Positions 35,790 to 52,126 of a stretch of DNA of 64,000 nt are shown here, piece by piece (the first letter of the stretch is position 1; every line of letters begins with the position of its first letter). The notes beneath the pieces were generated by a model. The model did not search any database. It was not told the DNA's origin and worked only from the letters and a program-made list of their open reading frames with translations. The position numbers were made by a program, and so were the translations under genes. Source of the stretch: Herbidospora yilanensis (lineage in GTDB: Bacteria > Actinomycetota > Actinomycetes > Streptosporangiales > Streptosporangiaceae); assembly GCF_001570565.1 (NCBI RefSeq), contig NZ_BBXE01000013.1:264984-328983 (forward strand). The letters run 5' to 3'.

Positions 35790-38102
35790 ATGTATGGGGG
35801 GAACCTCCCCCCAATACTGCTGGACGTGAGCGATTCGGCCGACCTTCCGCAGTTCCCCGGTGTCCTGGACACCGTGCGCGCCTGGCTCTCCTCCGCCGAT
35901 CCCCGGCCCCTCGTGCTGACCGGGCCGCCCGGCAGCGGCACCGCGGCGTTGCTGGCCCGGCTCGGCGAGCACCTCGCCGGAGAGCCGTCCGTCGTCGTCC
36001 GCGACGACCTCTGCGACGACCCCGCCCGGTTGCCGGCGCGGCCGGGTCTCCGCGTGATCACCCGGGCCCGCCGCCGGCACGACGGGCTGCTCTCCCTTCC
36101 GGTGCGGCCCCTGCGCGGCCACGGCCCCGACAGCGAGGTGGTCCGGTACTTCCTGCGGTGCCTGCGCCGCCACGACCCGACCGCCGTCGTCGCGGCCGAG
36201 GACCTGTCCCAGGTGAGCGAGGTCTGCGCGGCCTCGTTCGGGCTGTCCGCCGACGTCGACCTGCTGGCCGGGCTGGTCGCCCGCTACGGCCTGGCGGCCG
36301 TGCGCGACGCGGTCGCCGAGGACCACCAGCGCACCCGGCTGGCCGGGCTGCTCGGCGACGCCCACGGCCACCACGACCTGAGCGGCGACGAGATGGTCGT
36401 GCTGGCCTCGATCCTGGCGCTGCCGGGCGGGGCGAGCGAGAACGTGCTGCGCCACTCGTTGCCGCGGTGCGACATCGGCGGGCTGACCGCCTCCCTGGTC
36501 GAGCGCGGCCTGGTGGTGCGCGCCGAGCCCCGGCGCTGGCACCTGCGGGTGAGCGGCTTCCCGGCGGCGAGCTGGTGCGCCGCGCGGCCGGAGGTGTCGC
36601 TCGACGCGATCCGCCAGGCGCAGGCCGACTACCTGTCGGGCCAGGTCGCGCGGCTGGCCGCGGGTGTCTTCACCGACCACCAGCGGGCCGTGTTCGCCGA
36701 GTTCGACCACGAGCGGCGCAACCTCAACGCCGCCGTCGCCGAACTCGTCGGCGGCGGCCGGTACGCCCAGGCCGTCGCCCTCATGCGGGACGCCCTGCCG
36801 TTGCTGGCCCGCACCTCCGGCGTGGCCGGGCTGCTGCCGCACCTGCTGCCGGTCATCCGCAGGTACGCGCCCGCGACCCCGGCCGAACGGCACACGTTGT
36901 CGCGGCTGGCCGTGCGGGTGTTCGCGGCCGGAGGGGAACAGGAGGCCGCCGCCGTCTGCTTCGACGCGCTGCCGGAGACCGACCCGGACGTGCCGCTGCT
37001 GGCGGCCCTCGTGCACGCCGTGCCCGACCCGGAGGAGCTGGCCGCCTGCGTGCGGACCGCCCGCGAACAGGGCGACGCGGTCCGGCTGGGCGAGTCGGTC
37101 GGCGAGTACGTCGCCTGCCTGGCCCGGCTGCGCCGGTTCGACCGCGCCGACGCCGAATGCCGTACCGCCCTGTTCGAGGCGATGTGCGGCGGGGACGACC
37201 ACGCCGCGGCCTCGTTGCTGCTCTGGCGCGCGGCCGCCGCCACCGCCCTGGCCACCGGCGACAGCCGCCTGTACGTCGAACGGGCCCTCGCCAAGCTGCT
37301 GCCCCTCGGCCCGGCGGCGGCCATGTCGGCCATCGCCGCCGTGGTCGACGGACGCCACCAGCGCGACCTCCAGCAGAGCGCCGTCGACCTGGCGATGGTC
37401 GCCGGGTCGCTCGGCCGGGCCTGCGCGGCCGAGACGGAGCGTCCGGTCGAGGTCGGCGGGCTGCTGACCGGGCGCATCGGCGTCCGGCCGCTGCGCCGCT
37501 GGGTGACGGCGGGAGAGGGGGTCGACCTCGCCGACCTGCTGTGCGAGATCCTCCAGCGCAGGTTCGGCGACGACCCGGCCGCCCCCCGGCCGGTGCCGCA
37601 GGGCTCCGTCGACCCGAGGGTGCTGCGGGAACGGTCGCGGCTGACCGCCCGCGAGTCGGAGGTCGCCGGGCTGGTCGCGACCGGCCTGACGAACAAGCAG
37701 ATCGCCCGCCGGTTGCGCATCTCCGAGTGGACGGTGGTCAACCACCTGCGCCAGGTGATGCGCAAGCTCGACTGCGCCTCCCGGGTCCAGGTCGCCCGCT
37801 GGGTGCACGATCTGGAGGCCGGGTCAGCCCGTCTCGAACCGGCCGACGGCGACGGTGTGCAGCAGGGCCGGGTCGACCAGCGAGGCGAAGTCGGCCGTGA
37901 CGAGGTCGGCGTCCAGCGCGGCCAGCAGCCCGAGGTGCCGGTCGACGTACTCCGGGGGGTCGATGCCGCACGAGAGGAGTTCCGCGTACTGCTGGGTCAC
38001 GGCCAGGGTGGACTCGTACAGTTCGGGCGCGGCGGCGAGCATGCGGTCCCTGACCCGCGTGACCAGCCCCCCGTCGACGTCACCCTCGCGGAGCTGCGTT
38101 AA
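35790..38102 (+). CDS. LAL-type (large ATP-binding LuxR) transcriptional regulator
   Basis: N-terminal P-loop LVLTGPPGSGTAALLARL; C-terminal LuxR HTH ESEVAGLVATGLTNKQIARRLRISEWTVVNHLRQVMRKL. The first in-frame stop falls ~280 nt inside the convergent M16 gene. Confidence 0.75.
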   Translation: MYGGNLPPILLDVSDSADLPQFPGVLDTVRAWLSSADPRPLVLTGPPGSGTAALLARLGEHLAGEPSVVVRDDLCDDPARLPARPGLRVITRARRRHDGLLSLPVRPLRGHGPDSEVVRYFLRCLRRHDPTAVVAAEDLSQVSEVCAASFGLSADVDLLAGLVARYGLAAVRDAVAEDHQRTRLAGLLGDAHGHHDLSGDEMVVLASILALPGGASENVLRHSLPRCDIGGLTASLVERGLVVRAEPRRWHLRVSGFPAASWCAARPEVSLDAIRQAQADYLSGQVARLAAGVFTDHQRAVFAEFDHERRNLNAAVAELVGGGRYAQAVALMRDALPLLARTSGVAGLLPHLLPVIRRYAPATPAERHTLSRLAVRVFAAGGEQEAAAVCFDALPETDPDVPLLAALVHAVPDPEELAACVRTAREQGDAVRLGESVGEYVACLARLRRFDRADAECRTALFEAMCGGDDHAAASLLLWRAAAATALATGDSRLYVERALAKLLPLGPAAAMSAIAAVVDGRHQRDLQQSAVDLAMVAGSLGRACAAETERPVEVGGLLTGRIGVRPLRRWVTAGEGVDLADLLCEILQRRFGDDPAAPRPVPQGSVDPRVLRERSRLTARESEVAGLVATGLTNKQIARRLRISEWTVVNHLRQVMRKLDCASRVQVARWVHDLEAGSARLEPADGDGVQQGRVDQRGEVGRDEVGVQRGQQPEVPVDVLRGVDAAREEFRVLLGHGQGGLVQFGRGGEHAVPDPRDQPPVDVTLAELR

Positions 38103-39089
38103 CACCCGGGTGATCGCCTCGGCGGCGGCGGGGGCGCGGCCGGCGTCCACGAAGCCGCTGACGATGAACACCCCGCCGGAGAAGAACGGCATGAACCGGG
38201 CCTCGATGCCGTAGCTGGCCCCCATCCGGCCGCGCAGTTCGCGGTTGAGCAGGGAGTCGGGGCCGCCGCCGAGCAGTTCGCCCGCGACCCGGGCCGACGG
38301 CCAGCGCGGGTCGAGCCGGTCGACCGCGAAGCCGCCCAGCACGAGCCGGGTCTGGGGGCCGCCCCGGCCCGGCCGGTGCGTGCGGCCGGGCGTGTCCGCC
38401 GGGAGCGGCGGGACGTCGGCGAGGGGCAGGTCGTCCCCGGCGGGCACGCCGGCGAACGCCTTCGCGGCGGCGTCGGCGGCGCCGGTCCCGGCCAGGTCGC
38501 CGGCCACGACCAGGGTCATCCGGGCGGCGCCGGGCACGACGGCGGCGACGTCGTCCAGGGTCAGCGTGCGCCAGACCGCCTCGGTGCCGCCGAGCGGGCG
38601 GCCGTACCGGGAGCCGGGGGCCAGCACCGACTCGTGCACGAGTTTGTTGCCGAGCGCGATCGGGTCGTCGGACTCCATGGCCCGTTCGGCCACGACCTGG
38701 CGGCGCAGCGCCTCGAACGAGCGGGCCGTCGGCGTGAAGGGGTGCACCATCGCGGCCATCGCCTCGAACAACCGGGGCAGTTCGGCGGCCGGGCAGTCGC
38801 CCATGACGATCGGGCCCCGGTGCCCGCACCGCGTGGTGACCATCCCGCCCGCCAGGGCGAGGTCGCCGACGGTCCCGTCGCGGTGGTGCGGCGCGTCGGC
38901 GTTGAGCAGCGCCGCGTACGCCGCCACCACCCCCTCGGTCTCCGGGCGTTCGACCGCCGTGGTCGGCAGCAGGATCGACAGGGCGGCGGTGGCGACGTGC
39001 CGTCCGGGCATGTCGGCGAGCAGCACCCGCAGGCCGTTGTCCAGCGTGAACGTCTCCGGCTGCGGGAAACGCCAGGTCACAGGATCCAT
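37824..39089 (-). CDS. M16-family peptidase, non-catalytic-type subunit (no HxxEH)
   Basis: Start at MDPVTWRFPQPETFTLDNGLRVLL; M16 fold without the zinc motif; overlaps the start of the upstream M16 partner. Confidence 0.75.
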   Translation of the reverse strand: MDPVTWRFPQPETFTLDNGLRVLLADMPGRHVATAALSILLPTTAVERPETEGVVAAYAALLNADAPHHRDGTVGDLALAGGMVTTRCGHRGPIVMGDCPAAELPRLFEAMAAMVHPFTPTARSFEALRRQVVAERAMESDDPIALGNKLVHESVLAPGSRYGRPLGGTEAVWRTLTLDDVAAVVPGAARMTLVVAGDLAGTGAADAAAKAFAGVPAGDDLPLADVPPLPADTPGRTHRPGRGGPQTRLVLGGFAVDRLDPRWPSARVAGELLGGGPDSLLNRELRGRMGASYGIEARFMPFFSGGVFIVSGFVDAGRAPAAAEAITRVLTQLREGDVDGGLVTRVRDRMLAAAPELYESTLAVTQQYAELLSCGIDPPEYVDRHLGLLAALDADLVTADFASLVDPALLHTVAVGRFETG

Positions 39090-40258
39090 GAGGGTTCTCC
39101 GGCGGCGTGGAAGGCGACGACCGACGGCCGTGCCATCGGCCCGGCGGCCAGCGCGGCCACCTCGGCGTTGGTGACCCGGCGGACGGCGTCGAGCCGCGTG
39201 GTGACCCCGGCGGCGTCGCCCGACCAGGCGTGTTCCCGGCACAACTCCTCGGCGAGTGTGCGGGCGGCCCCGAGGGCCCCGAGTTGTTCCCTGATGCGCA
39301 GGGCCTTGGCGGCGGCCAGCACGTCGGGCGGCAGCCCGTCGCGGGCCACGGCGGCCAGACGGGCGGCGACGTCCCGTTCGAGCGCGGCCAGGTCGGCCGA
39401 GGCCGGGACCGACAGCTTGACCAGGCCGATCGACGGGCCGAGCGCGCACCGGGCGTGCTGGCCGAGCGCGCCGAGCAGGCCGGGCCGCGAGCCGAGCACC
39501 GACCAGGGGGCGCTGGCCAGCGCCGCCATCACCACCTCGGCGGCGGCCGATCCCGGCGGCAGGGCGAAGGTCAGCCGCACCATGGACGTCGGCTGGCCCT
39601 CCTCGACGTCCTCCCGCGCGCCCAGCGGCTCCCCGGTGACCGGCGGCGGGGCCGGCCGGCCCGAGGGAAACCCGGCCAGGTGGTTCCCGGCGATCTCCAC
39701 GGCCGCGTCGGGGTCGGCCGCGCCGACGACCGACACGACCAGCCGGTCGGCGCCGTAGTGGGCCTCCACGAACGTGGCCACGTCGTCGGGCGTCACGGCG
39801 GCGACCTCGGCGGGGTCGCCGACCGGCGGGCGGCCCGCCGGGTGGTCGCGCCCGAATAACAACCGCAGGCCGCGCCGCAGCCCCGACCCGAACCGGCCGG
39901 GTTCGTCGCGTTCGCGGATCTCCTCCAGCACGATCCGGCGGTGTCCCGCCAGCACGTCCCCGGTCACGCCGCGCCGGCCGCGCCGCACCCGGTCGCCGGC
40001 CTCGGCCAGCATCGCCGGGAGGGTGACCGCCGGGCCGGTCGCCACGTAGTTCGTGGACTCGTAGCCGGTGGTGGCCTGCGCCGAGCCGTTCTCGGACATG
40101 ACGTGCTCGACCACGTGAGCCAGGCCCGACCTGCCGATGGGGTCGTGCAGGGAGCCCGCGCCGTGCCAGGCGTTGACCGCGACGAAGCCGAGCCCCGGGT
40201 CGGGCCGCACGACCAGGGTCGCGCCGCCCGGCAGCCGGCGGGTGACCAGCCCGTCCAT
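39077..40258 (-). CDS. M16-family zinc peptidase, catalytic subunit (HVVEH)
   Basis: Start at MDGLVTRRLPGGATLVV; HxxEH motif in GLAHVVEHVMSENGS. Confidence 0.8.
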   Translation of the reverse strand: MDGLVTRRLPGGATLVVRPDPGLGFVAVNAWHGAGSLHDPIGRSGLAHVVEHVMSENGSAQATTGYESTNYVATGPAVTLPAMLAEAGDRVRRGRRGVTGDVLAGHRRIVLEEIRERDEPGRFGSGLRRGLRLLFGRDHPAGRPPVGDPAEVAAVTPDDVATFVEAHYGADRLVVSVVGAADPDAAVEIAGNHLAGFPSGRPAPPPVTGEPLGAREDVEEGQPTSMVRLTFALPPGSAAAEVVMAALASAPWSVLGSRPGLLGALGQHARCALGPSIGLVKLSVPASADLAALERDVAARLAAVARDGLPPDVLAAAKALRIREQLGALGAARTLAEELCREHAWSGDAAGVTTRLDAVRRVTNAEVAALAAGPMARPSVVAFHAAGEPSWIL

Positions 40259-41994
40259 CACGCGCCCACGGGGGCGGGGGCCGCCTGGGCGTGCACGAAC
40301 GCCTGGTAGGCGGGGCTGGCCGACGACAACGTGCCGTGGTCGCCCACGGCGGTGACGCGGCCGGCGTCGACGACCACGATCGTGCCGGCCGCGGCGACCG
40401 TCGACAGGCGGTGGGTGACCATCACCACGGCCCGGTCGCGGCCCAGGTCGGCGAGCAGGTCGGTGAGCCGCCGTTCGTTGACGCCGTCCATGTGCGCGGT
40501 CGGTTCGTCGAGCAGCAGGATCTCGGCGTCGGTCAGCAGGGCGCGGGCGATGGACAGGCGCTGCTCCTCGCCGCCGGACATCTGGTCGCCCGCGCCGAGC
40601 ACCGCGTCCAGCCCGGCGGGCAGGGCGCGCACGGCCTGCTCCAGGCCGACGTCGCGCAGCGCGGTCCACAACTCGTCGTCGGACGGGGCGTCCGACCGGC
40701 CCAGCGTCAGGTTCTCGCGCACGGTCATGGACAGGATCGCCGACCCCTGCTCGACCAGGGCGACCCGGCGGCGGGCCTCGGCTGTCGGCCACTCGTGGAG
40801 GGGCGCGCCGAGGAGCTCCACCCGCCCGGCGTCGGTCTCGACGAAGCCCTCCACCACGTTGAGCAGAGTCGACTTGCCCGCTCCCGACGGTCCGACGATC
40901 GCCAGCACCCCGGTGCGCGGCACCTCAAGAGACACCCCGTCGAGCACCGGCTTGCCGCCGAGCGACACCACGACGTCCGAGAGCCGCAGCGCCGGCGCGC
41001 CCGGCGTCACCTCGGGCGCGCGGGCCGCCCCGGCCGGTTCGGTCTCCGCGCCGAGCACCTCGTCGACCCGCCGCGCGGCGGCCTTGCCGACCGCGATCCT
41101 GCCCGCGCCCTGCGCCAGCGCCATCAGCGGGTTGACGAGCTGGAACAGGTACATCAGGAAGGCGATGAACGCCGTGGTCTCCAGCGCGCCCGAGGCCAGG
41201 CGCACCCCGCCCACGGCGAGCACGCCGATGATGGCGACCTGCTGGCCCAGGCCCATCAGCGGGCTGATCGCCGCCTGGGCCCGCGCCGAGCGCACCGCCG
41301 ACGCCGCCGCCTCGCCGATCTCGTTCTCCAGCGGGGCGATGGCCCGGTCCTCCGCCCGGTACGCCTTGACCGTCGTCACCATCGTGAACACCGACTGCGC
41401 GGCCTGGGCCAGCCGGCCGAGCGCGGCCTGCTGCGCCTCGGCCGCCCGGCGCATGCCCGCCAGGAAGGCCCTGATGGCGATCGCGGCCACGACGAACGTG
41501 CCGACCGTCACGGCCAGCATCACCCAGTCGAGGATGCCCATCACGATCAGGTACGCCGTCACCATCACCGCCGAGACCGGCATGACCGTGACGCCCGTGT
41601 CGGTGATCGCGCGCATCTGGGCGGCGTCGGGCCCCATCCGGGAGACCACCTCGCCCACGCCGATCCGCCGGATCACCGGCACCCGCAGGCGCACCGCCCG
41701 GCGCACCACGGCCAGGCGCACGTCCTCGATGGCCCGTTCCCCGGCCGCGCTCAGCAGGTAGGACGACCAGCCTCCGGCGAACGCCCCGGCCAGCACGATC
41801 ACGACGAGCTGCGCCACCGGCCAGACGACGTCCCCGCCCGTCCCGCCGATCACGCCCAGGATGCGGGCGATCAGCAGCGGCGTGACGATCCCGGCCGCGG
41901 CCGAGACCAGGGCGAGCACCACCGAGGCGGCCAGCCGGCCCCGCCGCGCCCTAACCGACCGGGACAACAACCCGAGTGTCGGCGACTCCGCCAT
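40258..41994 (-). CDS. ABC exporter, fused permease + ATP-binding domains
   Basis: Six TM helices N-terminal; Walker A GPSGAGKST, signature MSGGEEQRLSIARAL, Walker B ILLLDEPT. Confidence 0.85.
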   Translation of the reverse strand: MAESPTLGLLSRSVRARRGRLAASVVLALVSAAAGIVTPLLIARILGVIGGTGGDVVWPVAQLVVIVLAGAFAGGWSSYLLSAAGERAIEDVRLAVVRRAVRLRVPVIRRIGVGEVVSRMGPDAAQMRAITDTGVTVMPVSAVMVTAYLIVMGILDWVMLAVTVGTFVVAAIAIRAFLAGMRRAAEAQQAALGRLAQAAQSVFTMVTTVKAYRAEDRAIAPLENEIGEAAASAVRSARAQAAISPLMGLGQQVAIIGVLAVGGVRLASGALETTAFIAFLMYLFQLVNPLMALAQGAGRIAVGKAAARRVDEVLGAETEPAGAARAPEVTPGAPALRLSDVVVSLGGKPVLDGVSLEVPRTGVLAIVGPSGAGKSTLLNVVEGFVETDAGRVELLGAPLHEWPTAEARRRVALVEQGSAILSMTVRENLTLGRSDAPSDDELWTALRDVGLEQAVRALPAGLDAVLGAGDQMSGGEEQRLSIARALLTDAEILLLDEPTAHMDGVNERRLTDLLADLGRDRAVVMVTHRLSTVAAAGTIVVVDAGRVTAVGDHGTLSSASPAYQAFVHAQAAPAPVGA

Positions 41995-42970
41995 CGGACC
42001 CTCCCCTCGCGCGCACGGCGGCGAAGATCTCGCGCAGGTCGCGCATGCACTCGTCCTGGCCGTACATGTTGTTGACCGAGCTGGGGTTGACGACCACCTC
42101 GTCCACCCCCAGGTCGTGGTACTTGGCGATCTCGTCGGCGATGTGGTCGGGGTCGCCGTAGACGTACACCCCGGCCTGGACGAGTTCCCTGGCGCCCGAC
42201 ACCGGGTCGGAGGCGTCCACGTCGAGGCCCGCCCTGCGCAGCATGTCGGTGTAGTGGGGGGCCGACAGGTGGCTGATGCTGCCGTACTGGGCCAGCAGGT
42301 TGGCCGACCGGCCGGGCCGGGCGACGGCCGCGTGCACGACCGACACGATGCGCGGCGGCGGCTGCACCCCGGCCGCGCCCTGCGCGACGGCCGGCATGAC
42401 GACGTCCTCGATGTACTTGAGCGGCGTCAGCCACGTCATCGCGAGGTCGCCGCAGCGGCCGGTGACCCGGGCCATGGCGGGCCGCAGCACCCCCGCGCCG
42501 ATCTCCACCGGCGGGCAGTCCATCGGCGGCAGCGCGGCGTCGACGGTGAAGTGCTCTCCCTTGTGCCGCACGTGCTCGTTGCGGGCCAGCCGGCGGGCGA
42601 CGTCGATGAACTCGCCGACGATCGCGGCCGGTCTGGCGTACGGCTCGCCGCGCAACTGCGTCACGTACTGCGGGTAGGCGGCGCCGTAGCCGATCGCCAC
42701 CGGTTGTCCCATGAGCCGGGCCAGCGACCGGGCCTGCAACGCCGCGTCGTACGGGTGGCGCAGCACGATCAGCCCGACGGCCATGCCGATCGAGATCCGG
42801 CAGCCCGTCCCGGCCAGGTAGGCGACCGCCGGGTGGGACTCGATCCGCAACGACTGCCCGAGCCACAACCGCGCCGCGCCGATCTCCTCGGTCAGCCGGC
42901 CGTACGGGACGATCGTGTCCGGGTCGGTCGGCTGGTGCGGGAACATGAACGACACCTTGCGCGAGCTCAC
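41951..42970 (-). CDS. LLM-class (luciferase-like) flavin/F420-dependent oxidoreductase
   Basis: TIM-barrel LLM family signature (FPHQPTDPDTIVPYGRLTEEIGAARLWLGQSLRIESH...); GTG start overlapping the upstream stop (GTGA). Confidence 0.75.
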   Translation of the reverse strand: MSSRKVSFMFPHQPTDPDTIVPYGRLTEEIGAARLWLGQSLRIESHPAVAYLAGTGCRISIGMAVGLIVLRHPYDAALQARSLARLMGQPVAIGYGAAYPQYVTQLRGEPYARPAAIVGEFIDVARRLARNEHVRHKGEHFTVDAALPPMDCPPVEIGAGVLRPAMARVTGRCGDLAMTWLTPLKYIEDVVMPAVAQGAAGVQPPPRIVSVVHAAVARPGRSANLLAQYGSISHLSAPHYTDMLRRAGLDVDASDPVSGARELVQAGVYVYGDPDHIADEIAKYHDLGVDEVVVNPSSVNNMYGQDECMRDLREIFAAVRARGGSDGGVADTRVVVPVG

Positions 42971-43938
42971 GACGCCACCTCCACCAGCGGGCTGTCGGCG
43001 TTGCGGTGCGGCGCGAGCGGGTCGGCGTTCGCCTCGGCGAGCGCCTCGGCGACGGCCTCGGCCAGGTCGCGGCCGTCGAACAGGTGCCGCGCCACGCCGT
43101 CGGCGACCGCCATCGTGCGGTGCTGGCCCAGGCTCATGCGGTCCCATCCGGGCCGGGTGTCGCGCGGCTCCCAGCCGTACGCGACGCCGTCGGCGATCGG
43201 GCTGGTCATCACCGAGTGGGCCGGGTTCAGGCCGGGCAGGTTCCGCACCGCCGCGACGAGGCCGCCCACGGCGTGCCACGACTCCTCGGTCAGGTAGACG
43301 ACGATCGCGTCCCGCCTCGGATACTGGTCGGCCTTCGCCAGCACCTTCGCCCGGTAGGTCGCCCCGGCGCCCTCCAGCCGACTCAGCACCGCGTGCCACA
43401 CGGCGGGCGCCATCGACGGCTCGTCGACGTGCAGGTAGATCCGCAGCATGTGGCCGCCGGCCCCGTGGCCGCCCGCCGAGCCGTTGACCAGGAAGAACCC
43501 GGGAGAGAGCGTCGGCCTGATCGCGGGCAGCTCCAGCGTGGTGCGGGTGCCGATCTCCGGCAGCGGCGTCGGGCTCTCGCCCCCGGGGATGCGCAGGCGC
43601 ACCCGGCCGACGTCGAAGAGCACGTGCCGGCCGAGCGGGCCGTCGATCATGGCCGACCGAACGACCGCCGGGGTGCGGCTGGTGCGGTGGGGGGTGGCCT
43701 CCCGCAGGAGGTCCTCGAAGTCGTAGTCGCGGCGCGGGTCCCACTCGCCGGTCCTGACGGCCGAGCCGCTGTGCCAGTGGCGGTAGAGCACCGGCCCGAG
43801 GTCCTGGCGCAACCGGGTGCGGTTGTCGCCCGTGACCGTCTCGTCCCCGACGGTCACCGACCGGGTGTCGGGGTCGAGGCGCAGGTCGCCGAGCAGGTGG
43901 TCGAGCCGGTCGAGGAGACCCTGGTGGGCGATGGTCAT
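42967..43938 (-). CDS. hypothetical ~320-aa protein, candidate HopA1-like phospho-Ser/Thr lyase partner of the kinase
   Basis: No motif I can name with certainty. Assignment is from tight coupling (2-nt gap, GGAGAG RBS) to the APH-like kinase, and from its size and context matching kinase + HopA1-like pairs in class V lanthipeptide and thioamitide clusters. Confidence 0.45.
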   Translation of the reverse strand: MTIAHQGLLDRLDHLLGDLRLDPDTRSVTVGDETVTGDNRTRLRQDLGPVLYRHWHSGSAVRTGEWDPRRDYDFEDLLREATPHRTSRTPAVVRSAMIDGPLGRHVLFDVGRVRLRIPGGESPTPLPEIGTRTTLELPAIRPTLSPGFFLVNGSAGGHGAGGHMLRIYLHVDEPSMAPAVWHAVLSRLEGAGATYRAKVLAKADQYPRRDAIVVYLTEESWHAVGGLVAAVRNLPGLNPAHSVMTSPIADGVAYGWEPRDTRPGWDRMSLGQHRTMAVADGVARHLFDGRDLAEAVAEALAEANADPLAPHRNADSPLVEVAS

Positions 43939-43940
43939 GA

Positions 43941-45046
43941 TCAGTTCTCTCCAAGGCCGATGGTGGGGGCGAACTTCTCCGGCGTCGTGAGCGCGTTGCG
44001 GCCGATCCCGGCCATGCCGCGCTCCACCGCGCTGAGCCGCGCGCCGTGCACGGCGCCCGCGAGCAGCCGGTCGAAGAAGTGCCACCCGATGTAGCCGGTG
44101 GCCCGCACGGCCAGGCCCTCGTCCGGCTCGGCGACCTCCCGGTAGCCCTGCCAGAAGCGGCGGATGTGCTCGCGCACGGCCGACAGGTGCCGGTCGCCCG
44201 CGGCGACGATCGCCTCGTGGGCGGCGCCCGGCGACAGGCCCGTGTCCAGGTCGAGCTCGCGGAACATGCGCGCCACCGCGTGGTGCACGAACTCGCCCGC
44301 GAAGGCCCCGACGTCCCGGGCCGGGTCGTGGTGCCGGAACTCCTCCCAGTCGATGACGTACAGGTCGTCGCCGGAGCACAGGAACTGGTCCAGGCGCAGG
44401 TCGCCGTGGGTGACGGTGGCGGGGGCGGCGGCCGAGACCCGGTGCAGCGCGGCGAGCGCCTCGACCAGCACCTTGTCGTGCTGGAGCAGCGCCCACGCCT
44501 CGACCTCGCCGCCGCTGCAGTTGGCGTAGTCCTCGGGGCTCAGCGCGTAGAAGGCGTTGGCCCGGCGGTCGTCGGCCGACTCGGGCAGGTCCTCGGCGCG
44601 CGGCAGCGAGTGCACCTCGCCCAGCACCCGGCCCATCCGGTGGGCCAGCTCGACGTCGAGCTCCCCGGCCGCCAGCAGGTCGGAGGCGGCGCGGGAGTCC
44701 GGCACGTACTCGAAGACCAGCAGGCATTCGCCGGCGTCGGCGCCGTGGAAGGCCGGCACCCGCAGCTCGGCCGTCGCACGGCCGGCGATCAGCCGCTGGA
44801 AGGCCAGCACCCGGTCCATCCGGGCGGCGGCGTGCGCGCGGTCCCCCCGCAGGCGCTTGACGAACAGGTCGGGTCCCTCGGCGGTCGGCACCAGCCAGTT
44901 GTCGTTGCGGCCGAGGAAGCCGCGCATGCCCTCCACGATGGGCGTGGCCCCGCTGAGCGAGGCGACCGCCTGGACGAACTCCTCCGGGCGCGACACCGGC
45001 CGGGCCGCGACCAGCCGGGTCGTCTGTGTTTCCTCTTTCACGTCCA
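43941..45046 (-). CDS. aminoglycoside-phosphotransferase (APH)-fold kinase, candidate RiPP Ser/Thr kinase
   Basis: HGDLRLDQFL catalytic loop and IDWEEF motif of the APH/choline-kinase fold; divergent from the precursor array. Confidence 0.8.
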
Positions 45047-45104
45047 TGCGCCGAAATCTATGGACGCGGAAAGGCCCCGCGACATCCCAGGAAAGCACCG
45101 GCAG

Positions 45105-45246: not shown

Positions 45247-45387
45247 ATGTCCAGCGAACTCATCGCGGGATACGCGAACTACGCCAGCACCGAATCGGTC
45301 CTGAGCGAGAACACGACCGCCGAGTGGTGGCCGATCACGTCGTACACCGTCACGCTCTCCACGACGACCACCTCGATCTGGATCTGA
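45247..45387 (+). CDS. candidate RiPP precursor peptide A (46 aa)
   Basis: MSSELIAGYANYASTESVLSENTTAEWWPITSYTVTLSTTTTSIWI; RBS GAAGGAG 7 nt upstream; not in the ORF track. Confidence 0.7.
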   Translation: MSSELIAGYANYASTESVLSENTTAEWWPITSYTVTLSTTTTSIWI

Positions 45388-45397
45388 GGGGCGCGCC

Positions 45398-45538
45398 GTG
45401 TCCGAGCTGATCGCGGGTTACGCCAATTACGCCAGCACCGAGGCGGTGCTCCAGGAACGTTCCGAGGCCGGCCGCTGGATCGAGTGGACCCTCTGGTTCA
45501 CCGTCACCATCTCCGTCACCCCCACCTCCTCCCTCTGA
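45398..45538 (+). CDS. candidate RiPP precursor peptide B (46 aa, GTG start)
   Basis: VSELIAGYANYASTEAVLQERSEAGRWIEWTLWFTVTISVTPTSSL; GAGGGG upstream. Confidence 0.65.
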   Translation: MSELIAGYANYASTEAVLQERSEAGRWIEWTLWFTVTISVTPTSSL

Positions 45539-45559
45539 ACCTGCTGAGAAAGGAAGACC

Positions 45560-45709
45560 ATGTCCGAGCTGATCGCCGGTTACGCCAACTACGCCTCCAC
45601 CGAGGCCATCCTCCAGGAGCGGCAGCTCGCCGCCCGTGAGCCCGAGACCGGCCTGTTCACGCTCACCATCACGATCTCGCTGACCATCACGGTCACGATC
45701 AGCCTCTGA
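45560..45709 (+). CDS. candidate RiPP precursor peptide C (49 aa)
   Basis: MSELIAGYANYASTEAILQERQLAAREPETGLFTLTITISLTITVTISL; RBS AAAGGAAG. Confidence 0.7.
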   Translation: MSELIAGYANYASTEAILQERQLAAREPETGLFTLTITISLTITVTISL

Positions 45710-45722
45710 CCAGGAGGTCCCG

Positions 45723-45872
45723 ATGCACGAGCTCGTCGCCGGATACGCGAACTATGCCTCGGCCGAGGCGATCCTGCGGGAACAGGCCGCCGGGCGTGTT
45801 CTCGAAGCGGGTCTCTTCTTCTCGGTGACCTTCAGCTTCACCCACAGCAATTCCATCTCCTTCTCCATCTGA
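45723..45872 (+). CDS. candidate RiPP precursor peptide D (49 aa)
   Basis: MHELVAGYANYASAEAILREQAAGRVLEAGLFFSVTFSFTHSNSISFSI; RBS CAGGAGG. Confidence 0.7.
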   Translation: MHELVAGYANYASAEAILREQAAGRVLEAGLFFSVTFSFTHSNSISFSI

Positions 45873-45890
45873 CCGAAAGGAAACGGGCGA

Positions 45891-46046
45891 ATGAACGACC
45901 TCATCGCCGGATACGCCAACTACGCCTCCACCGAGGCCATCCTGCACGAGCGGCAGATCGCGAGCCGCGACGCCGAATCGATCAGCGCGACCGTGACGGT
46001 CACCTGGACCCTCACCGTCTCCTGGTCCTACTCCTGGTCCTACTAG
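45891..46046 (+). CDS. candidate RiPP precursor peptide E (51 aa)
   Basis: MNDLIAGYANYASTEAILHERQIASRDAESISATVTVTWTLTVSWSYSWSY; RBS AAAGGAAACGGG; the stop overlaps the stop of the convergent LAL regulator. Confidence 0.7.
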   Translation: MNDLIAGYANYASTEAILHERQIASRDAESISATVTVTWTLTVSWSYSWSY

Positions 46047-48979
46047 GAATCGCGCAGCACCGCGGCGTGGTCCCCCAGCGCCCCCCGGTTGGAAAGCCCG
46101 GTCTTGGCCAGCAGGCTGGCCACGTGCTTCTCCACCGTCCGCGGTGAGATGAAAAGTCGTCGGCCGATCTCGACGTTGCCGAGCCGTTCGGCGAGCAACA
46201 TCAGAACCTGGTGCTCGCGCACGGTCACGCCGAGGTTGCGCAGTTCGCCGGGCACCCCCTCCCGCCCGGGCCGACGGTACGACACCGCCGCCCCCGCCTG
46301 GCGCAGCAACGTGCGGCAGGCCGCCGTCACCGCCGTCACGCCCGCCTCGTGGAAGTGGTCCTCGGCCGCCCGCAACCACACCACCGGCTCGCCCCATCCG
46401 TCGGCCAGCGCGGCCTCCGCGACCAGCCGCGCCCCCAGGTGCGCCGCCTGCGGGAACGGCTCCCCGGCCGCCCGCGCCTCCGCCATCGTCCGCCCGGCCG
46501 CCGCGTGCTCGCCCCGCCCGCCCAGCAACACCGCGCGGGCGAGCAGCAGGAAGTGCCGGTTCCACCGCAGTTCGGCGGCCGGCTGGGCGTGCACGGCCGC
46601 CCAGTCGTCGAGGGTGAGCTCGCCGGCGAGCGCGCCCAGCAGCACGGCCAGGCCGTAGCGGCCCGTCATGTAGTAGAGCGTGGGATGTTCGTCCTCCCAC
46701 GCGCGTGCCCTGGCGAGCAACTCCGCCGCCTGGTCGCGGTCCTCCTCCAGCAGGGCGCAGAACGCCTGGCAGAGGCCGTACACGACCGGGGTGTGCAGGC
46801 TCTGCTCACCGCCCCACCTGCGGAAATCGGCCAGGGCGTGCTCCATGGCCTCGCGCCGCCCCTGGTGGGCGGCCAGTGTCGCCTGCGCCATCAGCAGATA
46901 CTGGGTGTAGGCCGTGTGCCCCAGCCGGATCGTGGTCTCGACGCACGCGGCGGCGGTCTCGGCGGCGCTCTTGTACTCCGCCCGCAGCACCCGCGTCATC
47001 ACCAGGGACGCCTCCGCGCTGTGCACCAGGCTGATCGCGCCCGCCTGGGTGGCCGCCCGCAGCACCTCCTCAAGCGGATCGCTCTCCCCGGTACGCATGT
47101 TGTGGTTGGCCGCCAGCCGGTACATCGCCCGCAACCGCCACAGGCTCAGCCCGTGCACCTCGGCGATGGCCTTCATCCGGGTCAGGCACCGGTCGGGCTC
47201 GCCGAACCCGTGCACCCTGGTCAGCATGGCCAGCCGCTCCCACGCCTGGCAGGCCACCTCGGGCAGCGGCAGCCGCTCGGCCACCTCGGCGGCGCGTCGC
47301 GACAGCGCCTCGGCGGCGGCCATCTCGGCCGGCCCGGCTTCGTTGACGCCGTGGTCGGGGAACAACAACTGCGCCTCGATCACGTCGATCGCGGCGCCGC
47401 GCGCCTCGTCGGGCAGGCTCTCCAGCGACCGCCGCACGGCCGCCACGTGGGCGCGCCCGGCGGGCAACTCGCCGATCTCGGCGGCCACCCACGCCAGCTT
47501 GGTGCGCAGGTCGACCTCCTGCCACAGCCCCATCGACAGGTCGTCGGACGCGCACTCCCTGGCCAGCTCCAGCGCCCGGTCGGCCCGGCCGCCCTCGGTC
47601 AGCGCGTGCAGCAACCGCTGGAGCGTGTGGGCCCGCGCCGGGGCGGGGCCGCCCTCCTGGAGCCGGTCGGCCCGTTCGAGCAGGGTCGCCGCGACGTCGG
47701 CGGCGCCGCCGTTCAGGTAACGTTCGCCCGCCTCGGCCAGCAACGCCCCGGCCGTGTGGACCTCACCGGCCGTCAGCCGCAGGCTCGCGGCGATCTGGAG
47801 CCACTCGTCCGGGAGCCCCGGATACAGGCGTTCGACCGACCGGGCCGCCTGGCGGGCCAGCCGGGCCCGCTCCGCCGGGATCAGCTCCGCCGACAACGCC
47901 TCGGCGGTCAGGGCGTGGCGGAAGGCGTACCATTCCCCGGCCGGTTCGTCGGGCACGACGAGCCGCGCCGTGGTGGCCGCCCGCAGGATCGCCTCGACCC
48001 CCCGGTCGTCGAGGCCGGAGACGTCCTGGATGACCGGCACCGGGAAGCGGTTCCCGAACACCGCCCCGGTCAGCAGCAGCTCGTGCGCCGCCGGCACGAG
48101 CGTCGCCATGCGCGCCGCGATCCCGCGCGCCGCCGAGTTCGGCCCCCGCGCGCCCGGGTCGTCTTTCAGGGCGTCGACGAACTCCTCGACCAAATACGGC
48201 ACGCCGTCCGTCTCGGCCACGAGGCGGTCCATCACTCCGTCCGGCAGCACGTCCGGCAACTCGTCCGGCCGTGCCAGGCAGGCCGCGACGAGCCGGCGGG
48301 TCTCGTCGGGCGACAGCGGCGGCAACTCGACGACCTCCGCCACCTGGCGGCGGGCGCAGTCGTCGGCCACGGTCCGCGCCGGGCCGGCGTGCCCGCGCAG
48401 GTTCACCAGGAGCAACGCCGGCACGTCGGCGAGGTTGTCGGCCAGGTATTCGACCACGCCCAGCGTGCCCGCGTCGGCGTCGTGCAGGTCCTCCAGCACC
48501 AGCACGCCGCCGCGCGACTCCCGTCCGAGAACGGTCAGGAGCCGCAACACGGCCTCGGCGAGGATGACCGCCGACTCCAGCCGCCGCGCGCCCCCCTCCT
48601 CCCGCCACTCGGGCACCAGCGTCGTCAACGCAGGGAGATAGGGCCGCAACAGCGGATCGTCGGGCGGCCTGCGCGACCGGGCGAGCGAGAACAACGCCTC
48701 GCTCAGCGGCTTGAACGGGATGTCCGCGCTGACCGCGCTACCCCGCCCGCGCAGGCTCACCAGCCCCAGGTCACCGGCCCGCCGGAGCACCTCCGACGTC
48801 AACCGGGACTTCCCGATGCCGGGATCGCCGACCAGGAAGACGGTCTTCCCGCGACCGTCCCCGACCTGCTCCAGACACCTGTCGAACAGCGCTTTCTCGG
48901 GTTCCCGCCCGATCAGGACCGGCGACCTGGACACGTTACTTGTGCGACACCGAGACGGGGTTGACGGGGTCGCCCTCAA
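46043..48979 (-). CDS. LAL-type (large ATP-binding LuxR) transcriptional regulator
   Basis: N-terminal P-loop VFLVGDPGIGKSRLTSEVL; C-terminal LuxR HTH REHQVLMLLAERLGNVEIGRRLFISPRTVEKHVASLLAKTG. Confidence 0.85.
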   Translation of the reverse strand: MRATPSTPSRCRTSNVSRSPVLIGREPEKALFDRCLEQVGDGRGKTVFLVGDPGIGKSRLTSEVLRRAGDLGLVSLRGRGSAVSADIPFKPLSEALFSLARSRRPPDDPLLRPYLPALTTLVPEWREEGGARRLESAVILAEAVLRLLTVLGRESRGGVLVLEDLHDADAGTLGVVEYLADNLADVPALLLVNLRGHAGPARTVADDCARRQVAEVVELPPLSPDETRRLVAACLARPDELPDVLPDGVMDRLVAETDGVPYLVEEFVDALKDDPGARGPNSAARGIAARMATLVPAAHELLLTGAVFGNRFPVPVIQDVSGLDDRGVEAILRAATTARLVVPDEPAGEWYAFRHALTAEALSAELIPAERARLARQAARSVERLYPGLPDEWLQIAASLRLTAGEVHTAGALLAEAGERYLNGGAADVAATLLERADRLQEGGPAPARAHTLQRLLHALTEGGRADRALELARECASDDLSMGLWQEVDLRTKLAWVAAEIGELPAGRAHVAAVRRSLESLPDEARGAAIDVIEAQLLFPDHGVNEAGPAEMAAAEALSRRAAEVAERLPLPEVACQAWERLAMLTRVHGFGEPDRCLTRMKAIAEVHGLSLWRLRAMYRLAANHNMRTGESDPLEEVLRAATQAGAISLVHSAEASLVMTRVLRAEYKSAAETAAACVETTIRLGHTAYTQYLLMAQATLAAHQGRREAMEHALADFRRWGGEQSLHTPVVYGLCQAFCALLEEDRDQAAELLARARAWEDEHPTLYYMTGRYGLAVLLGALAGELTLDDWAAVHAQPAAELRWNRHFLLLARAVLLGGRGEHAAAGRTMAEARAAGEPFPQAAHLGARLVAEAALADGWGEPVVWLRAAEDHFHEAGVTAVTAACRTLLRQAGAAVSYRRPGREGVPGELRNLGVTVREHQVLMLLAERLGNVEIGRRLFISPRTVEKHVASLLAKTGLSNRGALGDHAAVLRDS

Positions 48980-49136
48980 GTCCGAGCGCGATGGTCGCGC
49001 CCGCGGCGGTGTCGGGCGACTTAAGGATCAGGGTCGCGCCCGCGGTCAGCCCCGCCAGCACGAGCGCCCGGGTGAGCGGCCTGATGTTGGCCAGCCGCGC
49101 GCCGGCCGCGAGCACCGGATTCTGCTCAGTGTTCAT
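48936..49136 (-). CDS. small (66 aa) hydrophobic protein translationally coupled to the LanM-like gene
   Basis: MNTEQNPVLAAGARLANIRPLTRALVLAGLTAGATLILKSPDTAAGATIALGLEGDPVNPVSVSHK; GC3-rich; the start overlaps the lanM-like stop (ATGA); no Cys. Confidence 0.55.
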   Translation of the reverse strand: MNTEQNPVLAAGARLANIRPLTRALVLAGLTAGATLILKSPDTAAGATIALGLEGDPVNPVSVSHK

Positions 49137-51634
49137 CTGTTCTTCGTCGCCTCTCGAAAGGGGTGCAGCAACAGCACCGATGGAATCTGTCCGGGCGCGG
49201 CCAGCCGCAGCAGACCGTGCCCGATCCCGGCCAGCCCGAGGAGCAGGCCGGGTGTGGAGACGTGGCCGGGAGTGGCGCATCGTGCTCCGTGGCGGCGCAG
49301 GGACGCGAGCACCGAAGGGCCCTCACGTTCCTGGAGTTCGGGCACTCCGAGCCTGCCCACACGTCCGTGGCACAGGCTGTCGTCGGGCAGGAGCACGCTG
49401 GGCGGGGCCGTCCGGCGGGTCAGCAGCCCGCCGCACCAGGTGTGGCCCTCGACCGGGCCGATCGGGACGTCGAGCCCGTACCGGCCGAGCGCCCAGGCGA
49501 TGCCGGCCCGTCCGAACGCGAAGCCGTCGGGCAGATCCGGCGGCAGGTCCCGGCCGGTCAGCAGGTCGGCGCAGGCCGCCGCGACCGTCTCCGCCCCGAT
49601 GGCGAGCATCGCCGCCAGGCACCCGGCCAGCCCGTCGTGCACGTCGAGGGCGCTGCGCTCGGAGATCGTCGCCTCGGCCAGCTCGACCGCCCGGCCGGAC
49701 CACGCGAGCACCTCCGCGTCGCCGAGCAGGTGCCCGATCTGGGCCAGGCCGTAGGCCATGCCGCCCAGCCCGCCGAACCCGCCGCACCCCACGATCTCGG
49801 CCAGCAGCGGTTCGGCGGCCAGGGCGTCCAGCAGCGCGGGCGACGGGGAGAGGGCCTGCCGCGCGGTCTCCAGGAAGTCGCCGCGCCCGGTGACCGTGCC
49901 GGCCTGGGCCAGGAACAGCGCCACGCCGAGATAGCCGGAGGCCAGACCGCCGCCCAGGGGCATGACGGCGAGGCCGCCCTCGTCGTCGGCCTCCAGCCCC
50001 AGCCAGTTGACGGCCGCGCCCCGGCGGTGCGCGCTCGCGAGCAGTTCATCGGCGATCTTGACGGCCGCCGCCAGATAATCTCCGGTCTCGGCTTCGGACG
50101 GCTGATCGGGGCGTGGCGGATCGCCATCGACCCCCTTCGGGTCATGGCTTGGGGCCCCCGCCCGCGTTGCCAGTGACGCGCGAATGATCCACTCCTGCTT
50201 GCCCCGGTCGGCAGGCCCCAGCCCCGTCAGCTTCTCGCCCACCGATTCACGGCCCGTGCGGGCCAACTTCCACGGCACCCCGATGCCGTCCCCAGCGTAG
50301 ATCGTAAGGGAATCCGGCGATGTCCAGAAATAGGGGACATCGCATGAATTTATGCCCTCTGCCTCGAACGGCGCCGCCGCCCGCTGGAGGGCATCGTGCC
50401 CCGACAGCTCCATGAGCAGGGAAAGTGCGCGCTTACCTGAGTCGTCAAGGGCGGATTCCCATAACAGCTCGGAATAGATTCGGGTGGGCCGCAGAAGCAG
50501 TCGCACCCGCATGGGCCCGAACCGGGGGAACAACAACCGGTCCAGGTCGTGCCGCCCCTCCGCGATGGCGTCATAGGCCGCGCGAAAGCCACCGACCAGG
50601 TCGTCCACGTACGCGGCGGGGTCGGCAGGCCGCCCGTCGAGCCGGGGACGATTGGCGGCCCCCGCGAACGGACGCGGCCCGCGCACCGGCCGCATCAGAT
50701 CGGTGTCGCGGTCCTCCCACACGATCCCCGAATAGGCGTGCACCCCTGGGTCGCCGCCCAGCGCCGAGACGTCCTGGACCGCCTGGTCGCCGATCAGCAA
50801 CCTGGGCAGAATCGCGGTCCGGTCGACCGAACGCACGAGCGCGTCGTGGGCCGGATCGGCCGCGTCCGCGCTCAGCACAGGGTGGAACAGCGTCTCGGCG
50901 TCGACGACGACGGGCTGGTCGCCGGCCGCGACGACGTTCTCGAAATGGAGGTCGATCGTGTCCAGCGCGTGCGCCAGCGCGAGCAGCGCCCCCATCCGGC
51001 GATGGAACCGCGCCACCTCCGCCGCGGACGCGCAGGGCCGCGCCTCGGCGAACTCGACCCAGCCGTGCTCCTCACGGGCGACGACCCGGAGCGTACGCAG
51101 CCCGAGGCCGGGCACCCGGCCGTTCAGCCAGCCGATCGCGGCGTTCAGGCACAGATGCGCCTCGACCGGTCGCGGCCGGTAGACGACCCGGGCCCCCGAG
51201 GCGAACCGCACCACCGAGACCGACCGGCCACCGGAATGCGGATCACCGGCGGCCGAGAACGCCACCGGCCCTCCCGCTTCTCCCGGCATCAGGCCGCGCA
51301 CGGCCCTCTCGTCCCGCCGGAACCGGTCCAGCAACTCCATCGCGTGGCGTAACGCCAGGTCGGCCAGGTCGGCCACGGCCGGGTCCGGCTCACGCGCGGC
51401 CCGCCGGGCGAAGCCGGCGTACCTCTCCTCCGGCGTCGCCCCCGGCAACTCGCCCCGATCTCCGGCCTCGGCCAGCCGTACGGCCAGCGCCGGCGCGGCC
51501 CGCTCCGACAACCGGCCCACGAGATCCGCCGCGAAGGCCTCGGCGAACGCGGCCGCTCCGGGATACGCGGCCACCAGCCGGTCGGCGGCACGGCGGGCGA
51601 CGGGTTCGACGACGGCGGAGAAAGGGTGCGTCAC
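49133..51634 (-). CDS. LanM-like class II lanthipeptide synthetase homologue (DUF4135 dehydratase-like + LanC-like cyclase domains), short form (~833 aa)
   Basis: N-terminal kinase-like DLHFENVVAAGDQPVVVDAETLF; C-terminal LanC-like motifs HTWCGG, LCHGRVG, GLAGIGHGLL. Confidence 0.75.
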   Translation of the reverse strand: MTHPFSAVVEPVARRAADRLVAAYPGAAAFAEAFAADLVGRLSERAAPALAVRLAEAGDRGELPGATPEERYAGFARRAAREPDPAVADLADLALRHAMELLDRFRRDERAVRGLMPGEAGGPVAFSAAGDPHSGGRSVSVVRFASGARVVYRPRPVEAHLCLNAAIGWLNGRVPGLGLRTLRVVAREEHGWVEFAEARPCASAAEVARFHRRMGALLALAHALDTIDLHFENVVAAGDQPVVVDAETLFHPVLSADAADPAHDALVRSVDRTAILPRLLIGDQAVQDVSALGGDPGVHAYSGIVWEDRDTDLMRPVRGPRPFAGAANRPRLDGRPADPAAYVDDLVGGFRAAYDAIAEGRHDLDRLLFPRFGPMRVRLLLRPTRIYSELLWESALDDSGKRALSLLMELSGHDALQRAAAPFEAEGINSCDVPYFWTSPDSLTIYAGDGIGVPWKLARTGRESVGEKLTGLGPADRGKQEWIIRASLATRAGAPSHDPKGVDGDPPRPDQPSEAETGDYLAAAVKIADELLASAHRRGAAVNWLGLEADDEGGLAVMPLGGGLASGYLGVALFLAQAGTVTGRGDFLETARQALSPSPALLDALAAEPLLAEIVGCGGFGGLGGMAYGLAQIGHLLGDAEVLAWSGRAVELAEATISERSALDVHDGLAGCLAAMLAIGAETVAAACADLLTGRDLPPDLPDGFAFGRAGIAWALGRYGLDVPIGPVEGHTWCGGLLTRRTAPPSVLLPDDSLCHGRVGRLGVPELQEREGPSVLASLRRHGARCATPGHVSTPGLLLGLAGIGHGLLRLAAPGQIPSVLLLHPFREATKNR

Positions 51635-51694
51635 GCCCGCGATTATGTCGACCTGAAGTCCCGGAATGTCCCGGTCGTGCCCGGGAACCCGGGT

Positions 51695-52126
51695 TCACTT
51701 CCGGGGAGTCTCCTTGGGACCGGTGATGGGCACCCGCGTGGCCGACTCCTTCTTGGTCTCGCCCAGCTTGACGGTGACCTCCAGGATCCCCTTGTCGTAG
51801 ACGGCGGTGACCTCTTCCTCCATCGCCGTCGGCGGCAGCGCCACGGAGCGGGTCAGGCTGCCGTACCTGAACTCGCTGTGCTCCGCGTCCGACTCCTCGC
51901 GGTGCCGTTCGGCGTGTACGGTCAGAATCCCGTCGGCCACCGTGACCTCGACGTCCTTCTCCGGGTCGACGCCGGGCAGTTCGGCCCGCAGGACGTATTC
52001 GCCGTCCCGCATGACGTCCTCGAACCGTACGGGCTGCTGCATCGCCCGCAAGCCCAGGAACGGGTTCTCGAACAGATCGAAGATGTCGGGCAGCAGTGCC
52101 TTCTCCCGGCGCATGAGCGTGCTCAT
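51695..52126 (-). CDS. Hsp20/alpha-crystallin small heat-shock protein
   Basis: ACD core ...YVLRAELPGVDPEKDVEVTVADGILTVHAER...GILEVTVK. Confidence 0.85.
   Translation of the reverse strand: MSTLMRREKALLPDIFDLFENPFLGLRAMQQPVRFEDVMRDGEYVLRAELPGVDPEKDVEVTVADGILTVHAERHREESDAEHSEFRYGSLTRSVALPPTAMEEEVTAVYDKGILEVTVKLGETKKESATRVPITGPKETPRK

Follow-up and report, generated by a model that had tools for sequence, protein, structure and literature searches.

The question raised by this locus is what a lanthipeptide synthetase does where there is no Cys for it to work on. In a 64,000-nucleotide stretch of the Herbidospora yilanensis genome (contig NZ_BBXE01000013.1, positions 264,984 to 328,983; hereafter the window, with coordinates counted from its first nucleotide), an open reading frame (ORF) encodes an 833-aa LanM-family enzyme that combines a kinase-like dehydratase domain with a C-terminal LanC-like cyclase domain (Table 1). 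An earlier inspection of the sequence (the original prediction) had stated that all six candidate peptides of the neighbourhood, five from a tandem array and a sixth of 66 aa encoded next to the enzyme, are free of Cys, and this was borne out; no other ORF in the window carries an HPAGE-like leader of the LanA type. The puzzle is real and extends to a whole subfamily of LanM enzymes. The explanation that we favour, at somewhat better than even probability, is that the enzyme is a functional LanM that only dehydrates, that it acts on the coupled 66-aa peptide and not on the array, and that its LanC-like domain no longer cyclises.

In order to establish the identity of the enzyme we relied on model scores, residues and fold. 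The window consists of high-GC actinomycete DNA, in which the G+C content of third codon positions (GC3) frames a clear gene map; the ORF in question opens with GTG, has a GC3 of 0.88 and specifies a protein with 100 % identity to a H. yilanensis entry. DUF4135 (PF13575) was detected by Pfam at residues 88–438 (E=6.3e-86) and the NCBIfam LanM model TIGR03897 scored 458.8 bits (cutoff 304), whilst the Pfam LANC_like model matched with E=9.5e-16, its best stretch covering profile positions 4–120 of 350 only. The dehydratase signature from which the original prediction had recognized a LanM, DLHFENVVAAGDQPVVVDAE, is present at residues 228–247, and the Zn-ligand motifs it had named are likewise retained, with WCGG at 733–736 and CHG at 755–757; the predicted ligands C734, C755 and H756 align with those of known enzymes. 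LicM2 and CylM are the closest solved structures by sequence, as well as the best Foldseek matches (query-normalized TM-score, TMq, 0.74, E=2.8e-34 and TMq 0.67, E=5.5e-29, respectively) of an AlphaFold2 (AF2) model built on 91 sequences (predicted local distance difference test score, pLDDT, 92.9; predicted TM-score, pTM, 0.94). The layout comprises an N-terminal helical region, the kinase-like dehydratase at 88–438 and a shortened LanC-like domain at ∼543–833. By all of these measures the protein is a LanM. Nevertheless, it lacks two functional hallmarks of a lanthipeptide synthetase, namely a Cys-bearing substrate and the acid His of the cyclase, at whose position Phe707 is found. In the alignment to characterized LanMs that had been proposed as a check, the Zn ligands are intact, as are the dehydratase residues apart from K274 (CylM numbering), which is Arg, and Phe stands in place of the acid His.

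The 66-aa ORF and the gene for a LAL regulator follow lanM on the same strand; the ATG of the former overlaps the LanM stop codon (ATGA), and the latter begins 1 nt past the stop of the 66-aa ORF. When one genome per species was scanned, 80 loci were retrieved, and in nearly all of them lanM is followed by an ORF of 55–80 aa and then by a LAL/LuxR regulator, so that the arrangement recurs in about 80 actinobacterial species; in many of the loci, including that of the window, the start of the small ORF and the stop of lanM overlap (offset −3). As this order is conserved across loci, the 833-aa protein belongs to a lanM–peptide–LAL unit, of which we found no description in full-text literature searches. 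Among the same 80 loci, matches to the kinase, HopA1, luciferase-like (LLM) oxidoreductase and array genes of the window are confined to L001–L003 (Herbidospora and Sphaerimonospora), the H. cretacea and Sphaerimonospora orthologues having the full window arrangement, whereas in over 70 further species the unit occurs without array, kinase or HopA1. The closeness of the LanM unit to the kinase/lyase pathway is lineage-specific. In the original prediction the LanM had by implication been grouped functionally with the array and was thought to duplicate the dehydratase function of the kinase/lyase pair. Neither view is supported by this distribution or by a comparison of the leaders, which are of the class II LanA type in the coupled peptide and of the LxmA type, matched to the LxmK kinase, in the array. 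What had been merged into one system is now split into two, with the 66-aa ORF as the candidate peptide of the first.

The settings of the unit were surveyed in further genera. In Actinosynnema and Kribbella (L084 and L085) it is solitary, with unrelated genes around it, and it lies beside a canonical class II cluster for a peptide made on the ribosome and modified after translation (RiPP) in Streptosporangium (L083), beside a non-ribosomal peptide synthetase (NRPS) cluster in Micromonospora peucetia (L087) and beside signalling genes (BTAD/NB-ARC–S8–GAF–guanylate cyclase) in Nonomuraea (L086). Neighbours as different as these hint at a portable regulatory cassette. In H. yilanensis an Hsp20 gene (51695–52126, minus strand) separates lanM from the NAD kinase gene upstream of it; H. 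cretacea has no Hsp20 gene at that spot, and its NAD kinase–lanM gap is just 76 nt. A GC-rich palindrome (AACCCGGGTTCCCGGG, ∼51665–51695) lies within the 60 nt that separate the Hsp20 stop from the LanM GTG and might serve as a terminator or operator.

Conservation of the catalytic residues was assessed in 86 enzymes from lanM–peptide–LAL loci, using CylM and NisC numbering. The dehydratase residues D252, H254, D347, H349, N352, D364 and R506 (CylM) are invariant in all 86, and T512 is either Thr or Ser; the 833-aa protein keeps every catalytic residue of the CylM dehydratase except K274, replaced by R153. In the LanC-like domain, the Zn ligands and the adjacent Trp (W283, C284, C330 and H331 in NisC) are again invariant in 86/86. 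The acid-His site (H212 in NisC, H219 in LanCL1 and H835 in CylM) behaves differently. Its position was set by profile alignment, in which GFaFGaaG of the family is matched to GFSHG of LicM2, GFGHG of CylM and GAAHG of LanCL2, and the site is occupied by His in only nine enzymes, by Arg in 52 and by Phe in 14, the 833-aa protein being one of these last. Protonation of the enolate falls to this residue, which cannot be mutated without harm in NisC, SpaC, LctM, ProcM and LanCL1/2 (PMC9934072). The canonical LanMs adjoining some units keep it. Within the family, retention of the His does not follow the presence of Cys in the peptide, as the enzymes of L011, L027, L036, L055, L063 and L066, all with Cys-containing peptides, have Phe or Arg; thus, loss of the His does not simply track loss of Cys. 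A rough neighbour-joining tree, in which some loci occur twice as 'b' duplicates of one ORF, was used for two points only: the canonical neighbouring LanMs cluster separately and Herbidospora sits on a long branch.

The small ORFs align as one family (consensus ..HPAGE[IM]xL..G-ARARALAGLT..TTVS..), with a GC3 of 0.94 in the orthologues of the 66-aa ORF. An acidic N-terminal part bearing [D/N]HPAGE[I/M]xL leads into a basic stretch, and after this come a hydrophobic segment (G-ARARALAGLT...) and a short Ser/Thr-rich tail, such as TTVSAPG or TTVSxK. The Herbidospora peptide conforms to this plan with a degenerate LanA-type leader, a basic and hydrophobic segment (TRALVLAGLTAGATLIL), an SPDTAAGA stretch (SPDTAA[HG]A after the hydrophobic segment in members from Streptosporangiaceae) and a tail ending in PVSVSHK, although it is N-terminally shortened, reading NPVLAAGARL where its relatives have NPAGSIMIRL. 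In Streptosporangium the leader ELVRQWKNPQARSADLAHPAGEISL...VGG is common to the family peptides and to the genuine Cys-rich LanAs of the adjoining class II cluster, and both kinds of peptide gave weak, sub-threshold matches to TIGR03898 (mersacidin/lichenicidin). The tails are conspicuous for their hydroxyl residues: two or more Ser/Thr fall within the last 12 residues of 76 of the 78 unique peptides, and Ser and Thr together make up 32 % of the last 12 aa compared with 14 % elsewhere. A Cys within the last 25 residues was seen in only nine of the 78. Ahead of the tail, 75 of 81 peptides contain a 15-mer with a mean Kyte–Doolittle hydropathy of ≥ 1.5, preceded by two or three Arg/Lys residues and followed by a median of 14 aa. 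From these features the 66-aa ORF, listed in the original prediction as merely one of six candidates, is most likely the LanM's own substrate.

Some members depart from this pattern. Among those sampled, the coupled peptides of L037 and L061, whose LanMs keep the acid His, and of the related L074, whose LanM has Ser there, contain no strongly hydrophobic segment (maximum 15-mer hydropathy 0.5–1.2) and are also without a tail Cys. L037, L058, L061, L074 and their relatives thus point to sub-types within the family. In the protein collection the family amounts to at least 160 clusters, including some from soil metagenomes, and nearly all named entries are annotated as hypothetical, none of them with a Pfam domain. 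An assignment of the small ORF to DUF6229 ('actinopeptin'; PMC13509491) was considered and rejected, as neither Pfam nor NCBIfam gave a match.

Compared with 89 relatives, the Herbidospora enzyme has been trimmed. The stretch ahead of its GDxH motif is 130 aa long where the median is 228, so that ∼100 aa of the N-terminal region are missing; its LanC-like part, at 291 aa, falls short of the median of 349, Herbidospora having lost ∼58 aa of the barrel on both sides of the WC and CH motifs. In the AF2 model inner helices 4 and 5 are not followed by their outer helices, and residues 720–757, around the Zn site, are mostly coil with the lowest pLDDT of the domain. The ORF is nevertheless intact, at 832–833 aa, in three Herbidospora species. 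Ratios of non-synonymous to synonymous substitution rates (dN/dS) were 0.32–0.38 for the whole of LanM, 0.24–0.35 for the LanC-like part, 0.33–0.41 for the DUF4135 part, 0.22 for the 66-aa peptide, 0.26 for the LAL regulator and 0.08–0.13 for housekeeping neighbours; the LanC part thus fares no worse than the dehydratase part. lanM is at the same time the fastest-evolving gene of the locus (88 % identity, compared with 92–97 % for its neighbours). The suggestion in the original prediction that the LanC-like domain may be vestigial is supported in part only: the acid His has become Phe and part of the barrel is lost, but the Zn ligands are frozen across the family and the domain evolves under purifying selection.

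We infer from the sequences the following course of events. The LanM would bind the LanA-type N-terminal region of the coupled peptide, and its intact dehydratase domain would phosphorylate and eliminate Ser/Thr residues of the tail (PVSVSHK here; TTVSAPG/TTVSxK elsewhere), giving dehydroalanine and dehydrobutyrine (Dha and Dhb). No lanthionine would form, for want of a Cys in the peptide and of the acid His in the LanC-like domain; the domain itself may be retained as a Zn-binding scaffold for folding or substrate handling, further trimmed in Herbidospora. The basic and hydrophobic middle of the peptide may serve as a Sec-type signal within the chain or as a membrane segment, so that a unit without a transporter or protease of its own would be explained. 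Regulation of the unit, and perhaps of its neighbours too, would be the task of the LAL protein. There is precedent for chemistry of this kind in CcaM of the dehydrazole pathway, a DUF4135 enzyme that performs dehydration only and whose inactive cyclase domain is still needed (PMC10676384).

Several observations weigh against this explanation. Invariance of the Zn ligands and their Trp, in a family whose substrates are mostly free of Cys, is weakly explained by a purely structural role. Approximately 10 % of the family peptides do contain Cys, and some members may cyclise without the His. K274, the ATP-contacting Lys of CylM, is Lys in 56 of the 86 enzymes and Arg in the remaining 30, including the 833-aa protein; Arg spans whole clades at this site (Lentzea, Streptosporangiaceae), which may tolerate the exchange or mark an altered nucleotide contact. 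The hydrophobic segment looks like a signal peptide as judged by hydropathy and charge only. Finally, as the leader of the Herbidospora peptide has lost its N-terminal portion and HPAGE with it, recognition of this peptide by the enzyme is less certain than in other genera.

Of the facts listed, the constancy of the Zn site is the least well explained, and it keeps alive the proposal that the LanC-like domain is still catalytic and joins to Dha/Dhb either a protein Cys or a low-molecular-weight thiol from outside, such as mycothiol, much as eukaryotic LanCL adds glutathione, an exogenous thiol having been among the options of the original prediction. Selection on the LanC part fits this proposal, as do the structural matches to LanCL1/2, for which intermolecular thia-Michael addition is established (PMC9934072). 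We nonetheless consider it unlikely, given that the residue needed to protonate the enolate is gone in 77 of the 86 enzymes, that the Herbidospora domain has lost two outer helices at 720–757, where the model is least confident, and that the unit holds no conserved thiol-related gene. A further option for the cyclase domain would be work in trans on unlinked, Cys-containing LanAs with an HPAGE-type leader, yielding ordinary lanthipeptides. The shared leader motif of the Streptosporangium LanAs and the minority of coupled peptides with Cys are in keeping with this, yet the acid His is again missing, the coupled small ORF is itself conserved and under selection, and no Cys-containing peptide of this type was seen in the 64-kb window, nor any from Herbidospora among the best 120 matches to the peptide profile. 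As such, ordinary lanthipeptides made in trans seem quite improbable.

That the LanM serves the five-peptide array, with LxmK/HopA1 or redundantly to them, is suggested by proximity, the two being ≤ 3 kb apart in Herbidospora (the window, L001 and L003) and Sphaerimonospora (L002), and by Ser/Thr-rich cores that could occupy two dehydratases. We rejected this improbable assignment on the synteny of the 80 loci and on the mismatch between the LxmA-like leader and the unrelated HPAGE-type leader of the coupled peptide; furthermore, LxmK scores as an equivalog and forms with HopA1 a complete dehydratase pair. A mainly non-enzymatic LanM, which would partner the peptide and the LAL protein in a regulatory or chaperone-like capacity, would sit well with the strict linkage to that regulator, with the unrelated gene clusters or signalling genes beside the unit and with the precedent of a LanM-like quorum-sensing effector, Clostridium CA_C0082, for which such a role in Agr signalling has been proposed (PMC10301443). 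Its chances appear slim, as the catalytic residues of the dehydratase are all invariant, unlike those of CA_C0082, and as the peptide tails offer conserved Ser/Thr-rich targets. Lastly, the in-frame deletions, long branch and rapid evolution seen in Herbidospora might be taken for signs of a decaying pseudogene or remnant, which the original prediction had named among the findings that would refute it. This is almost certainly wrong and was rejected: dN/dS remains ∼0.3 in every domain despite the barrel loss, the ORF is intact in three species, the AF2 model is confident and the catalytic residues are in place.

Comparison with known systems sets the dehydration-only LanM apart from each of them. 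Canonical LanMs (LicM2, CylM, LctM and ProcM; mersacidin/actagardine-type) share its two-domain architecture, fold, dehydratase residues and Zn ligands, and the leader of its presumed substrate matches in type that of genuine LanAs. Here, however, the peptide is free of Cys, the acid His is Phe (mostly Arg in relatives), a LanT transporter/protease is absent, the enzyme is obligatorily linked to a LAL regulator and the peptide has an internal hydrophobic, signal-like segment. LanMbC/CcaM enzymes share DUF4135, dehydroamino acids without lanthionine and a non-cyclising C-terminal domain that is still required, but that domain is of class III type and free of Zn ligands, the enzymes are leader-independent, require azoles that a YcaO installs and are found in YcaO clusters (PMC10676384); in the present family Zn ligands are invariant and a leader-type region is conserved, and the window gene map contains no YcaO gene. 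Clostridial CA_C0082 is likewise a LanM-like gene that has no other lanthipeptide cluster genes with it and is linked to a regulatory or signalling locus, although it lies downstream of the agr operon and lacks catalytic residues and Zn motif (PMC10301443), both of which are kept here alongside a coupled peptide of the enzyme's own; no agr context was seen at the window or H. cretacea locus. Precursors without Cys have been noted before: Walker et al. (2020; PMC7268733), with reference to Zhang et al. (2015), left some LanM-associated actinobacterial precursors lacking Cys out of their lanthipeptide counts, in clusters that have both LanM and LanKC, the latter being absent here.

If the enzyme is indeed restricted to dehydration, a broad LanM subfamily, represented by ∼80 species in a single scan, makes no lanthipeptides, and a product class may have been overlooked, since mining tools would either label such loci as class II lanthipeptide or discard them for want of Cys. 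The family would also constitute a natural experiment on the role of LanC after the loss of cyclisation, with frozen Zn ligands and a lost acid His, as well as a candidate for a RiPP precursor that carries its own export signal and has a LAL regulator dedicated to it. A wider proposal, which we regard as doubtful, is that the unit is a self-contained RiPP signalling cassette, in which the co-encoded STAND/LAL regulator would sense an exported or membrane-anchored dehydropeptide by a direct or indirect route and the Zn site would have a new, non-cyclase role. The LAL protein would then control the unit together with the adjacent unrelated clusters (class II, class V-like or NRPS) where these are present.

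Table 1. Genes of the lanM–peptide–LAL unit and of the adjacent, putatively class V-type system (window coordinates)
Feature	Position	Strand	Basis
LanM-family enzyme, 833 aa	49133..51634	−	Profiles, fold, alignment
Cys-free 66-aa peptide, proposed cognate substrate	48936..49136	−	ATGA overlap, family alignment, dN/dS
LAL regulator, 963 aa, AAA_16 ATPase and GerE/LuxR helix–turn–helix (HTH)	46043..48934	−	Domain profiles
Five tandem precursor genes, 46–51 aa, leader M(S)ELIAGYANYASTEAILQER	45247..46046	+	Sequence; weak LxmA_leader matches
Class V-type kinase LxmK	43941..45047	−	NF038156, 363.9 bits, cutoff 315
HopA1-family protein, phospho-Ser/Thr lyase type	42967..43938	−	PF17914, E=5.7e-41
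Luciferase-like (F420-type LLM) oxidoreductase	41951..42970	−	PF00296, E=1e-32; TIGR03564 and related below cutoffs
ABC exporter	40258-41994	−	
M16-type peptidase with HVVEH	39077-40252	−	
Second M16-type peptidase	37824-39086	−	

The five array peptides are grouped with the neighbouring genes (Table 1), in which the LxmK/HopA1/LLM operon is divergent from the plus-strand array. These genes, and not the 833-aa protein, match the class V set LxmK/LxmX(HopA1)/LxmJ known from lexapeptide and cacaoidin, although known class V LxmA precursors carry Cys and those of the array do not; the matches of the latter to LxmA_leader are sub-threshold only, and no candidate LxmY-type cyclase was seen among the window genes. 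On balance, we take LxmK, HopA1, the LLM oxidoreductase, the ABC exporter, the M16 peptidases and the array to form a separate class V-type pathway that is a mere neighbour of the LanM unit in Herbidospora and Sphaerimonospora. The array cores display a strict alternation of Ser/Thr with hydrophobic residues (TLTITISLTITVTISL, ATVTVTWTLTVSWSYSWSY), a pattern for which we found no description in the literature; the Sphaerimonospora orthologue (L002, 16156–16815) reads SITITITITITITI. An F420-type LLM oxidoreductase is the type of enzyme that reduces Dha to D-Ala in lexapeptide, and with it and the LxmK/HopA1 dehydratase pair at hand the array product could consist of poly-dehydro peptides, or of D-aminobutyrate/D-Ala alternating with L-residues as in gramicidin. 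At the far end of this region, an ORF for a LuxR-type regulator (35790–38102, plus strand; HTH at residues 617–671) overlaps the convergent M16 gene by ∼280 nt; as the GC3 framing switches near 37750, the tail of this ORF is probably noncoding.

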